From assembly GCA_046726415.1 (NCBI GenBank), contig JBKPAK010000057.1, positions 1-19,001 of the forward strand: a DNA stretch of 19,001 bases, written 5' to 3'. This DNA comes from Candidatus Methylomirabilota bacterium. Lineage in GTDB: Bacteria > Methylomirabilota > Methylomirabilia > Rokubacteriales > CSP1-6. A model generated the notes under the pieces. That model was not told the origin of the DNA, searched no databases, and was given only the letters and a program-made list of their open reading frames with translations. Position numbers and translations under genes: made by a program. Within the stretch, counting starts at the first letter, position 1, and every line of letters starts with the position of its first letter. Below are positions 12,515 to 16,198 of this stretch, one piece after another.

Positions 12515-13333
12515 GTGAGCGTGCATCCGGATCCATTCCGCGACATCGATGCGCAGCCCGATCCCCTCCGCATCGTCGAGGCCCTGGAGAGACGCGGGAG
12601 CACGCCGGCTCAGCGGCGCCTGCGCCGGCGCTTCCTGCGCTTCGTCCCCGTGACGCGAGGCGATGCTGTCCTGGAGGTTGGCTGTGGGACGGGGGTGATC
12701 GTCCGCGATCTGGCGGGCATGGTTGGCCCCCGGGGCCGGGTGGTCGGCGTCGATCGGAGCCGCGCCACCGTCAAGGCCGCTCGCCTGCTCGCGCGCGCGC
12801 ATCCGTTGCGGTCTCACATGGGGCTGCGGGTTGCCAACGGTGAGCGGCTACCCTTTCGCGCCGACCGCTTCGACGTCGCCCTCGCCATCACGGTGATGCT
12901 GCACGTCGCGGACCCGGGCGCGGTGGTCACGGAGATGGCGCGCGTGATCCGGCGGGGCGGTCGGGTGGCCCTGCAAGACCAAGATTTCGGGGCGGTGGTA
13001 CTCGCGCATCCGCATCGAGCGCTGACGGTCAGGATCCTCGACGACGTCGTGGCACGCCTGTATCCGGAACCGTATAGCGGGCGCCGTCTCCCCCGTCTGC
13101 TCGCCGAGGCGGGGCTCGAGGACGTGCGCGTGCTCACCGACGTCTACCAGGATACGGCGTTAGAGCCCTACACCAAGGACTTCCTCGAGCGTCGGGCTGA
13201 GAACGCCGTGCGCTTTAGGATCGTCGACGCGCGGACCGCGCAACGGTGGCTCGATGATCTCACCGAACTGGTGGTTCAGGGCGCCTTTCTCTTCACCGTG
13301 AACTACTACGGCGCCGTGGGGGTGAAGCCCTGA
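12515..13333 (+). CDS. Class I SAM-dependent methyltransferase (UbiE/Methyltransf_11-like)
   Basis: VLEVGCGTG, VVGVD, LPFRADRFD, EMARVIRRGG. Confidence 0.9.
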   Translation: MSVHPDPFRDIDAQPDPLRIVEALERRGSTPAQRRLRRRFLRFVPVTRGDAVLEVGCGTGVIVRDLAGMVGPRGRVVGVDRSRATVKAARLLARAHPLRSHMGLRVANGERLPFRADRFDVALAITVMLHVADPGAVVTEMARVIRRGGRVALQDQDFGAVVLAHPHRALTVRILDDVVARLYPEPYSGRRLPRLLAEAGLEDVRVLTDVYQDTALEPYTKDFLERRAENAVRFRIVDARTAQRWLDDLTELVVQGAFLFTVNYYGAVGVKP

Positions 13334-14220
13334 AACGGCGGGCGCTCGCCGTCGGCCTCGCCTTGGCCGCGACGGTCGCCGCGGCGGGGGCCTCGGCGTT
13401 CAGTGGAGAGGCGGCCTTTCGGGACGTGGATCGCCTGGTGGACATGGGGCCGCGCGTGGCGGGCTCGCCGGGGGGCGCCAAGGCGCGCGACTACATCGTG
13501 AGCGAGCTGAGGAAGGCCGGGGTCGCGGCAAGAGTCGAGCCGTTCGAGGCCGATACTCCGCACGGGCGCCTGCGCATGGCCAACGTGGTGGGAGTGATCG
13601 CCGGACGCCGAGCCGACGTCATCCTCATTGGAGGGCACTACGACACCAAGTTCTTCGCCGACCGCCGGTTCGTGGGCGCCAATGATGGAGGCTCGAGTGC
13701 CGGGCTGCTGCTCGAGCTGGCCCGGCAGCTCGCGCGCAGCCCCCGCGACTTCACGTACTGGGTCGTCTTCTTCGACGGGGAAGAGGCGCGGGAGTCCTGG
13801 ACGGCGACCGACAGCCTGTACGGCTCGCGCCGCCTGGTCGCGGAGCTGTCTCGCACTGGCCGCCTCCCGCGCGCCGTCATCGTGGTGGACATGATCGGCG
13901 ATCGCGACCTCAACATTCGGCGCGAGGCGTTCTCCACGCAGGCCCTGGCCGACCTCATCTGGGCCGCGGCCCGCCGCCTCGGTCACGAGCGCCACTTCCT
14001 GTCCGCCTCGATGCCGGTGGAGGACGACCACGCGCCGTTCCTTCGGGCCGGGGTGCCGTCGGCCCTGCTCATCGATTTCGACTTCCCCCCCTGGCACACG
14101 GCGGGCGATACCCTCGACAAGGTCTCCCCCCGGAGCCTACAGATCGTGGGCGACGTGCTCCTGGACGCGCTGCCCTCGATCGAGCGCTGGCTGCTCAGCT
14201 CACCGCTGCGCCAGCGGTGA
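13330..14220 (+). CDS. Exported peptidase M28 family protein, animal-type glutaminyl cyclase-like
   Basis: GGHYDTK, GANDGGS, FFDGEE, SLYGSR, VDMIGD, EDDHAPF, WHTAGD. Start proposed at CTG 13330 (ORF track gives TTG 13363), restoring a full signal peptide. Confidence 0.85.
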   Translation: MKRRALAVGLALAATVAAAGASAFSGEAAFRDVDRLVDMGPRVAGSPGGAKARDYIVSELRKAGVAARVEPFEADTPHGRLRMANVVGVIAGRRADVILIGGHYDTKFFADRRFVGANDGGSSAGLLLELARQLARSPRDFTYWVVFFDGEEARESWTATDSLYGSRRLVAELSRTGRLPRAVIVVDMIGDRDLNIRREAFSTQALADLIWAAARRLGHERHFLSASMPVEDDHAPFLRAGVPSALLIDFDFPPWHTAGDTLDKVSPRSLQIVGDVLLDALPSIERWLLSSPLRQR

Positions 14221-14252
14221 ACGTCCATTCGCGCGCGATGAGCTGTGACCGC

Positions 14253-14275
14253 GCCGGGCGCCATGGCGGCCCGGC
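14253..14275. terminator. GC-rich hairpin between the M28 gene and the AhpD-like gene, possible terminator without U-tract
   Basis: GCCGGGCGCC AT GGCGGCCCGGC inverted repeat. Confidence 0.3.
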
Positions 14276-14301
14276 CTCGCGGCGCTTGGCGATGACGGGG
14301 C

Positions 14302-14307
14302 TATAAT
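14302..14307 (+). promoter_or_regulatory. Consensus -10 element TATAAT of a leaderless transcript
   Basis: TATAAT-CCGGCC-ATG(14314), no SD. Confidence 0.7.
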
Positions 14308-14313
14308 CCGGCC

Positions 14314-14856
14314 ATGCCGCGCGTCGGCGAGATCGAGGAGCCGGGCGATGACCCGGTTCTGCGCGAAATCTTCGAGCGGGACCGACAGCTCTTCGGCTTC
14401 GTCCTCAACACCACAAGGGTCCAGGCGCACTGTCCGCCCATCCTCCACGCGGCCAAGCAGCTCTCCGTGGCCATCGAGACGTCCGGACGGCTTCCCGCCG
14501 AGCTTCGGGCCCTCGTGAATCTCCGCGTGGCCCAGCTCAACGGGTGTCCGTTCTGAATTGACATCAATGCATCCCGGGGGATGCACGCTGGAGCCTCGGC
14601 GGAAAAGGTGCGCACGGTGGCCGACTTCGCGACCAGCCCGCTGTTCTCGGAACGCGAGCGCGCGGCCCTCACCTTCGCGGAGGCCATGACCATCACCGGT
14701 CAGAAGGTGACGGACGAGCTTTTTGCCCGCGTGCGCGCTCACTACTCCGAGCCTGAAACGGTGGAGCTGGCCGCGGCGGTCGCCATCGAAAACTTCCGCA
14801 GCAAGTTCAACGTGGCGCTCGGCGTGGAAGCGCAGGGATTCTGCGTGCTCAGGTAG
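14314..14856 (+). CDS. AhpD/carboxymuconolactone decarboxylase-family selenoprotein (180 aa, C78-P-F-U81)
   Basis: ORFs 14314-14556 and 14581-14856 share one frame, separated only by TGA 14554-14556. Read-through gives LRVAQLNGCPFUIDINASRG...SPLFSERERAALTFAEAMT...VTDELFARVRAHYSEPETVEL...ENFRSKFN, with the UGA at the second Cys of the family CxxC motif. Confidence 0.9.
14568..14585 (+). promoter_or_regulatory. Bacterial SECIS-like stem-loop
   Basis: TGCATCC-CGGG-GGATGCA, a perfect 7-bp stem starting 11 nt after the UGA; loop begins 18 nt downstream with G at loop position 2. Confidence 0.8.
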
Positions 14857-16084
14857 TTACGACCCGTTGGGCACCCCGGCTGGAGGGGCACCGGCCGGCG
14901 TCGGTGGCAGCAGGGTGGCAGCCGATGCCTCGAACGCCGCGGCCTGAGGCAGCCACCGCGCATAGACCCGCAGCAGCACCGAGGCGCTGCGCCACCCTCC
15001 CTGATGCTGGACGTAGAGCAGGGGGAGCGTACCTGGAAAGCATGGTCGAGGCGAACGTGTGCCTGAGCTGCTCGGGCACCCGATAGCGCACCCGAGCCTT
15101 GGCGAGCGCGCGACGCCACCGACGGTGCACCTCCATCGACGACAGCGGTGTGCTACCCGGGCTGCCGGCTGGAGCAAAGACGAACGCCTCGGGATCCCGT
15201 GACCGCGTTCCGAGGGTCTGAAGCCCGGCTAGCACGCTCCGTGCGGCGTCGGTCCCGCCTGGTCGCCAGTCCGCGGTGTCGTCGGCGACTGGGTGCAGGA
15301 GCGACACGGAGCGTGCATGCCCCGTCTTGGTTGGCCCGAGGCGCTGCCGACTCCACGTTCTCTGCACCAGCGCCGTTCTTCGCTCGAGGTCGAGATCCTG
15401 CCACTGGAGCGCGCACACCTCACCCGCACGCATTCCAGTCTGGGCCCACAGCCGGAACATCGCAGCGGCGTCGGGTCCCACCGCCGCCCTGGCTCCTTCC
15501 AAGAGTGCCCGTAGCTCCCACCCCGTGAAGGGGTCGACCTGGTCGATGCGGGGGGCGAGACGGAACTCGACCTCCTTCATCGGATTGGCCGGGATCAGCT
15601 TCACCTTGACCGCACGCTGCAGGATCAGCCGGAGAGCCAGCAGCCCCGTCCGTAGCGAGGCATCCGATAGCGCCTTGCCGGGCCGGCGCACCGACCCGCC
15701 GGGCGCCGGCTTCGCCTCGATGAAGTCCTCGATCGCTTCCGGCGTGATCGCGGTGATCGTTTTGGCGCCGAAGAACGGAAGGAGATGCATCTCGGTGAAC
15801 GAGCGGTAGTTGTCCATGGTGCCCGGGCGCACCGCGTGGAGCGATGGATACTTTCGGCACCACTCCTTCGCGATGGTGGTGAACGTCGGCACGGGACCGG
15901 TGCCTTTCGGCGGATCGAAGATCGACGTATCGCCTTCCGCCAGCCTGGCCGCGATCCTGATCGCCGCCAGCTCCGCCGCCTTCTTGCCGGCCTTGCCGGT
16001 GCCCACTCGTCTCCGTTTTCTTCGCCCCTTGTGAACCACGTCGAGCCAGTACGCTCCCTTCCAGATGACGACCTTCACGGCCAT
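14857..16084 (-). pseudogene. Tyrosine recombinase (phage-type integrase) with a +1 frameshift at a C5 run
   Basis: AGGAGG SD and ATG 16084; arm-binding-like N-terminus, TGMRAGE, PTKTG, EQLRHTFAS. The motif LLYVQHQGGW...LLRVYARW with the catalytic Tyr is in another frame, joined by removing one base at 15021-15025. Confidence 0.88.
14903..14922. repeat. GGTGGCAGC direct repeat x2 (11-bp period), candidate integrase arm-type sites
   Basis: Copies at 14903-14911 and 14914-14922; GGGCACC also occurs twice just upstream (about 14869 and 14886). Confidence 0.4.
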
Positions 16085-16198
16085 GCCGCCTCCTGTCCGC
16101 CGGAGCGTCGCGTCGAGCCCGGAGGCAGTGTGCCCCGCCACGCTGCGACGATGCGCTCCGTGCGCTGGGTACGGAAGTATCCACGACGAGGAGGCGTG

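Follow-up and report, generated by a model that had tools for sequence, protein, structure and literature searches.

The question that this locus raises is whether a TGA codon in the middle of an otherwise continuous reading frame ends a protein or encodes one of its residues. The locus is found in a stretch of 19,001 nucleotides (the window; 65-72% GC), which is contig C57 of a Candidatus Methylomirabilota genome of 7.6 Mb in 352 contigs with a completeness of 98%. On the forward strand, an ATG at 14314 starts an open reading frame of 80 codons that ends at a TGA (14554-14556), and the same frame continues to a TAG at 14854-14856. Read through, it gives a product of 180 amino acids with the context AQLNG-C-P-F-[TGA]-I-D-I-N, followed by ASRGMH. 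An earlier description made from the letters alone (the sequence-only reading) had noticed one frame at 14314-14856 with a single TGA break and a hairpin 11 nt further on, and its coordinates and letters are all correct. It had also proposed one 180-residue selenocysteine (Sec) protein that gene callers split, and this proposal is borne out by the Sec machinery of the genome, by a TGA at codon 81 in 20/20 orthologs, by a covarying hairpin, by homologs with Cys at this position and by the separate halves that the databases hold. The mid-gene TGA almost certainly encodes selenocysteine. To judge from sequence comparison, we are highly confident that 14314-14856 (+) would be a single, complete selenoprotein gene of 180 codons and a TAG stop, whose product has an AhpD/CMD fold with the motif C78-P-F-U81 and in which the in-frame UGA at codon 81 (14554-14556, +) is read as Sec by means of a hairpin SECIS.

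The sequence-only reading had suggested looking in the genome for selA, selB, selD and tRNA-Sec, and all four were found, each above its curated cut-off. The tRNA-Sec scores 71 bits against a cut-off of 47 and is called by ARAGORN as SeC with the anticodon tca; it is directly adjoined on contig C313 by selA (592 bits) and selB (374 bits). The selD gene scores 336 bits and has one in-frame TGA inside (G000:C223:11994-12938, L019), so that in this genome the selenophosphate synthetase is probably a selenoprotein as well. The genome also contains prfB, which encodes release factor 2 (RF2; 496 bits), and UGA is therefore an ordinary stop elsewhere; the M28 peptidase gene upstream and several of the orthologs do end in TGA. 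These data bear on one possible option in which UGA is read as Trp, Gly or Cys without selenium, by a changed code or by near-cognate suppression. Such a reading could explain why some database entries have G, S, L or W at position 81 (P0002-P0005), yet each of these residues is one base off TGA and the entries are singletons or nearly so, as is seen for errors or for calls made with another code. Since RF2 is present, TGA terminates the M28 gene and several orthologs, the Sec pathway is complete and a hairpin follows every such UGA, we regard decoding as an ordinary amino acid as very unlikely.

If the TGA is a Sec codon it should persist among relatives, and the sequence-only reading had expected homologs with Cys or TGA at codon 81 and conservation on both sides. 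A six-frame search of this genome and 40 relatives (41 genomes; G011 is counted in this search only) gave a match in 40 of the 41, and the best 28 matches, one per genome and 51-99% identical, each contain exactly one TGA. This TGA is codon 81 in 20/20 ortholog loci (L024-L043), in the context GCPFU[IM]D[ITV]N[AS]S, with C78, P79, F80 and D83 invariant in all of them. The 20 orthologs are 51-83% identical over their full length, and the similarity runs from residue 1 to about residue 177, on both flanks of the TGA, and the wider homologs have Cys at this codon, which agrees with this expectation. The same reading had named a sequencing error as a possible source of the TGA. Contigs from four soil metagenome runs, from four studies, cover 14554-14556 without any variant letter, and two of them bridge the site (X3 record 17 and X4 record 25). 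The summed depth of these contigs has its peak at 14536-14583, where it is raised by the many related contigs that have this stretch in common. The conservation in orthologs together with the metagenome contigs indicates that the TGA did not arise as an error or by a recent nonsense mutation.

This conservation also decides about a pseudogene, in which a nonsense mutation from TGC or TGT to TGA would have inactivated an ordinary CxxC AhpD-like gene. Cys forms exist (P0122 and P0038) and a single base change would be enough, but a TGA at the same codon in 20/20 orthologs, down to 51% identity, in an unbroken frame with selection acting on either side, does not fit such an event, and neither do the conserved covarying hairpin after the TGA and the Sec machinery in the genome. 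We consider the pseudogene to have a negligible probability; on the sequence comparison it appears to be effectively refuted already by the conservation of the TGA across genomes.

Another question is whether the hairpin that follows the TGA can be the signal for Sec insertion. It is located at 14568-14585 (+), 11 nt past the UGA, and consists of a perfect 7-bp stem, TGCATCC (14568-14574) with GGATGCA (14579-14585), or UGCAUCC/GGAUGCA in the RNA, closed by the 4-nt apical loop CGGG (14575-14578). Taken alone, this hairpin is within chance and unexceptional in DNA of 68% GC. Folding of the single sequence gave no signal (76-nt fold, z = +1.02; 177/200 shuffles fold as well), and a hairpin of at least 6 bp is found at such a distance after 510/5481 (9.3%) other in-frame codons of such genes. 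What raises the hairpin above chance is the comparison, namely its presence at 44/44 related UGA sites, its covariation and the RNAalifold prediction. The 44 related Sec genes are the 20 orthologs and 24 genes from 40 further CMD-type loci that were chosen from the six-frame search list; seven of the 40 fetched loci were left out because the motif or the match was missing. All 44 genes can form a stem of 6 bp or more that begins 10-14 nt past the UGA, with a loop of 3-5 nt and a G in the first two loop bases; the apical loops seen in the family include CGGG, CGUG and AGGG.

In a 54-column alignment of the orthologs (A1), 92.9% of the cells in the named helix are paired, and both sides change in 4/7 stem pairs, with G-C replaced by U-A in five sequences and an outer pair that alternates between U-A and C-G. 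The covariation score of the hairpin was matched by 0/500 shuffles, registers that are slid by 1-3 columns pair in just 24-60%, and RNAalifold predicts the same helix unaided. Ortholog L043 has a wholly different palindrome, GCUAGC-GGC-GCUAGC, in the equivalent place. Part of the nucleotide conservation of the stem belongs to the protein level, because the stem encodes the conserved peptide A/S-S-R-G-M. Among the 49 conserved four-fold-degenerate codons of the 20 orthologs, though, the third position has zero entropy at Ser87 (UCC, 19/19) and Gly89 (GGG, 19/19), which are both in the stem, while the remaining 47 have entropies of 0.61-1.71 bits, and the third position of the loop codon Arg88 varies freely. 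These frozen positions around a variable one argue that the RNA is under selection in addition to the peptide. The sequence-only reading had called the hairpin SECIS-like and proposed covariation as a check, and on the evidence of the shuffles, the RNAalifold helix and the 44/44 Sec genes this claim held.

The minimal SECIS element of Escherichia coli fdhF is likewise spaced 11 nt from its UGA, and the fdhF element has a bulged base. No bulged base of this type is found in the hairpin at 14568-14585, and the search of this hairpin against Rfam gave no SECIS family, only three chance matches of miRNA or snoRNA type that were all below threshold. A bacterial SECIS is defined, in passages of the 2005 Sargasso Sea study (PMC1088965), as a stem-loop just 3' of the UGA with a small apical loop that contains a G. 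The hairpin has this position just 3' of the UGA and a small, G-containing apical loop.

Analysis of the protein family supports one continuous chain. The Pfam CMD domain (PF02627) matches residues 52-123, across the UGA, with 55.2 bits against a cut-off of 23. An AlphaFold model that was predicted from the ortholog alignment has nine helices and a pLDDT of 92, with values below 50 only in the last three residues. Foldseek gave 35 PDB matches at E <= 0.001, of which all the listed ones are of AhpD/CMD type, with TM scores of 0.84-0.89 to Bmp8, Deinococcus radiodurans AhpD, 2oyo and 2prr; for PA0269 and Atu0492, which are shorter proteins, the scores are 0.71-0.75. Sequence alignments without gaps place C78 and U81 on the CxxC of 2gmy, 2ijc, 2o4d, 7xw1 and 6ohi. 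The fold of the selenoprotein is that of the AhpD/CMD proteins and its Sec takes the place of the second CxxC cysteine, and the assignment in the sequence-only reading, to this family and with Sec at this position, agrees with both the Pfam match and the alignment of U81 with the second Cys of these five solved homologs.

An exhaustive search with HMMER gave 6054 relatives (E <= 0.001), and 149 of the best 150 were aligned. One library entry (P0123) was left out because it is a tandem-repeat ORF in which weak repeated matches add up; in its 3939 amino acids a unit of 89 residues recurs about 44 times, as would be seen for an ORF that runs across a tandem repeat. Cys occupies the Sec column in 127/149 aligned representatives. 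These 127 Cys forms conserve C78 in 121, D83 in 117, E115 in 116, G175 in 112 and C177 in 100, from which the subfamily signature C-x-[FWY]-C/U-x-D ... E ... G-[FLY]-C can be drawn. The closest full-length Cys form among the best 150 of the 6054 relatives is P0122, which is 50% identical, reads CSFCIDIN at the motif and ends in QGFCILP.

The same data can be used to examine whether the locus contains two small genes, or whether termination at the UGA gives an 80-residue product with the downstream half made separately. Gene callers do annotate it in this way: about 112 of the best 120 database matches are C-terminal pieces of 99-105 amino acids, and the representative library has nine pieces that end in GCPF. 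Against this, the CMD domain (52-123) and the predicted helices cross the TGA, the Cys homologs are single chains, the earliest start codon in the window past the TGA at 14554-14556 is at 14581, and the CxxU motif would be split in two. We regard two separate products as extremely unlikely, and a single selenoprotein remains our preferred reading.

Three residues received special attention in the sequence-only reading, which noted that Asn stands in place of the usual His and suggested that extra Cys residues may be resolving residues. Asn85 is present in 20/20 Sec orthologs and aligns with the His of 2gmy and 2ijc, so that the replacement as such stands. As an adaptation to Sec it does not, since the Cys forms mostly have Gly or Asn: the residue at +4 in the 127 Cys-form representatives is G in 63, N in 29, S in 10 and H in 9. 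Asn for His is a subfamily trait that is common to the Cys forms and no consequence of Sec. We also considered that Sec forms in general lose the His at +4. This idea came from a local sample in which the Sec forms had N 28, R 12 and H 4 (n = 44) and the Cys forms H 9 and R 1 (n = 10), and it was rejected on the counts for the 127 Cys forms from the unbiased library search; P0122, the closest of them, has Asn at +4 in its CSFCIDIN. With regard to the extra Cys residues, Cys40 (in HCP) is not conserved, being C, T or R among the orthologs and H, S, R or N in the wider family. Cys177 (in GFC) is conserved in 18/20 orthologs and 100/127 Cys homologs, and it is located on the low-confidence C-terminal tail of the model; a role for Cys177 as a third redox residue is plausible.

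CxxU selenoproteins of AhpD-like type have been in print since 2005, and the window gene is a further member of a long-known kind. Passages of the Sargasso Sea study of that year report AhpD-like (COG2128) and CMD-domain CxxU selenoproteins with 27 and 4 sequences, respectively (PMC1088965), and passages of the study of the GOS data place AhpD-like 1 (299 sequences) and AhpD-like 2 (70) among the commonest selenoprotein families (PMC2398784). A 2026 review lists, in the part that concerns them, four such CxxU families, and it cites Deng et al. 2026 for a Methylomirabilota MAG with 63 predicted selenoprotein genes (PMC13188914). As far as these descriptions go, the marine families (AhpD-like, COG2128; CMD, PF02627, AhpD-like 2) share with the window gene the Pfam family, the CxxU motif with Sec at the second Cys, a SECIS directly 3' with a small G-containing apical loop, and abundant Cys homologs. 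They differ in that they are marine while the genomes here are soil-type and of high GC, and the likeness is one of descriptions rather than of sequences.

The closest named fragment of the window ortholog group among the best 120 database matches is from a Candidatus Rokuibacteriota MAG. When the gene is compared with AhpD-like 1 (COG2128, CxxU), a group that we take to be the YciW group, the CxxU motif is present and the best NCBIfam match is YciW-related. This best match is NF053654 ('GroundWater_YciW: YciW-related (seleno)protein'), which covers the full length (1-175 of 179; E 2.3e-46) and has the same architecture and Sec position, but the window gene scores 157.8 bits against its cut-off of 310. 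NF053654 fits the paralog group CEFUQDxN better, with 290.5 bits for the copy on contig C161, which is still under 310. The score below the cut-off and the better fit of the paralog indicate that the window gene belongs to a sister subfamily that has no curated equivalog model. For TIGR01926 (peroxidase-related enzyme), the window gene scores 55.2 bits, under the cut-off of 81.8.

Comparison with solved structures shows which features are shared with Cys enzymes. Atu0492 (2gmy), PA0269 or Pseudomonas aeruginosa AhpD (2ijc, 2o4d, 7xw1) and D. radiodurans AhpD (6k40) share the AhpD fold with TM scores of 0.71-0.88. In 2gmy, 2ijc, 2o4d and 7xw1 the CxxC falls on C78/U81, and 2gmy has Asp at +2 as in the window protein. 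The solved Cys homologs differ in having Cys and not Sec, and His at +4 versus Asn, and those of 145-153 amino acids lack the first 35 residues of the window protein and the GFC tail at its C-terminus. Mycobacterium tuberculosis AhpD (1knc, 1gu9), in which the second Cys is the nucleophile, has a fold of the same superfamily and a redox centre of CxxC type but is a distant match only (TM 0.54-0.57, 13% identity, Foldseek E 0.2-0.3); where its CxxCxxxH has His the window protein has Asn, and there is no AhpC or lipoamide partner near the window gene. AhpD proper is recognized by CxxCxxxH with a His/Glu proton relay, and in 20/20 orthologs the residue at this place is Asn85 and not His.

A mechanism that fits these data is that UGA81 would not be read as a stop because the hairpin at 14568-14585, inside the coding sequence, would act as a SECIS and recruit SelB-GTP-Sec-tRNA(Sec), presumably through binding of SelB, with insertion of selenocysteine. 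The product would be an all-helical redox enzyme of the AhpD fold with a Cys78-x-x-Sec81 active site at the N-terminal end of a helix. The likeliest chemistry, to judge from homologs of 13-30% identity, is thiol/selenol oxidoreduction, which we hold to be reasonably probable. In such a reaction Sec81 may be the nucleophile that attacks a hydroperoxide or an oxidised partner protein, Cys78 would resolve the intermediate by forming a selenenylsulfide with Sec81, and Cys177 on the flexible C-terminal tail may exchange with this selenenylsulfide or pass the electrons on. The neighbouring genes (M28 peptidase, methyltransferase and integrase) give no hint of a partner.

Another hypothesis accepts the insertion of Sec but not a peroxidase-type oxidoreductase, and proposes instead a reductive dehalogenase like Bmp8, or the handling of a metal or metalloid through C78, U81 and C177. 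The tetrabromopyrrole debrominase Bmp8 (6ohi, 6ohj) is the best full-length Foldseek match (TM 0.84) and matches in sequence with E 1e-14; its CMYC falls on CPFU without gaps and its dehalogenation is reportedly thiol-based. Three conserved chalcogen residues could also bind a soft metal. On the other hand, the identity to Bmp8 is low (26-27%), Bmp8 has Cys and not Sec, the AhpD-named structures 6k40, 7xw1 and 6e8l match about equally, and the neighbourhood is not of bmp type and is without a halogenase or metal-transport gene. We consider this hypothesis unlikely and favour thiol/selenol oxidoreduction. A more speculative extension of the latter, to which we likewise give a small chance, is a three-residue relay of Cys78, Sec81 and Cys177, in which the tail Cys would reduce the selenenylsulfide and export the oxidising equivalent to an external reductant, as a thioredoxin reductase tail working in reverse. 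The Sec forms would then be self-contained, high-turnover reductases of peroxides or organohalides that have expanded, within this soil lineage, to seven or more CMD subgroups with Sec, of which this genome contains four, each with its own SECIS.

The genes upstream on the same strand are an ABC transporter set, a methyltransferase (12515-13333) and the M28-family peptidase (13363-14220, +; PF04389, E 1.7e-32), which is syntenic with the selenoprotein gene. The peptidase is upstream in 13/20 orthologous loci and the methyltransferase in 11/20. A TATAAT hexamer is found at 14302-14307 (+), 6 nt before the ATG, where it may be a -10 box and points to a separate transcript without a leader in this genome. 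A TATAAT-like hexamer stands 6-7 nt before the start codon in 10/20 orthologs (among L026-L037) while the others have ribosome-binding sites of the GGAGG type, which suggests that the same selenoprotein mRNA occurs among the orthologs both with and without a leader. A scan of 14150-15000 for two-hexamer sigma-70 promoters and terminators gave no sites, and the fold of the intergenic region (14215-14316) is unremarkable (z +0.55).

Downstream there is a convergent gene for a tyrosine recombinase of the phage-integrase family, in two frames at 14849-16141 (-) and 14857-15177 (-), with a frameshift near 15023-15048. The intact homolog of L032 matches frame -2 with residues 10-368 and then frame -3 with residues 355-394, and the true recombinase stop is a TAA 2 nt from the TAG of the selenoprotein gene. 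By tblastn a homologous recombinase is found at the same place in 4/20 orthologous loci, and this recurrence suggests that it may be a resident gene and not a fresh insertion.

Another point that is raised by these searches is how often such genes occur and how they are stored. Three further genes of the CMD family in this genome carry a single in-frame TGA at the CxxU position (G000:C106:16657-17148, G000:C161:72-599 and G000:C15:61227-61691; L045, L050 and L058), each with its own hairpin 11-12 nt past the TGA. Related genomes contain at least six further Sec subgroups: CEFUQDxN, CTYUxTHN, CEYUTRAH, CxYUxKxR, CEYUGVQR and SxYUMDIR. One Sec subgroup has SxxU, with the first Cys missing. The databases contain the family mostly as halves (about 112 of the best 120 matches), and 17/149 library representatives are halves as well. 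Among P0002-P0005, P0007 and P0035, a few 'full-length' entries have, in place of the Sec, one of G, S, L or W, which are each a single base away from TGA, and two others lack residues of roughly 73-113, as though the part around the TGA had been spliced out; these odd entries resemble artefacts, from errors or from genes called by different rules.

The finding leaves the knowledge of Sec decoding and of AhpD-like proteins unchanged, and its value is mainly one of annotation. Gene callers systematically split the window ortholog group, for which NCBIfam has no curated equivalog, as well as six or more sister groups in related genomes. Correct calls would raise the selenoprotein counts in such soil lineages, which fits the very large selenoproteomes that passages of the 2026 review describe for Methylomirabilota (PMC13188914).
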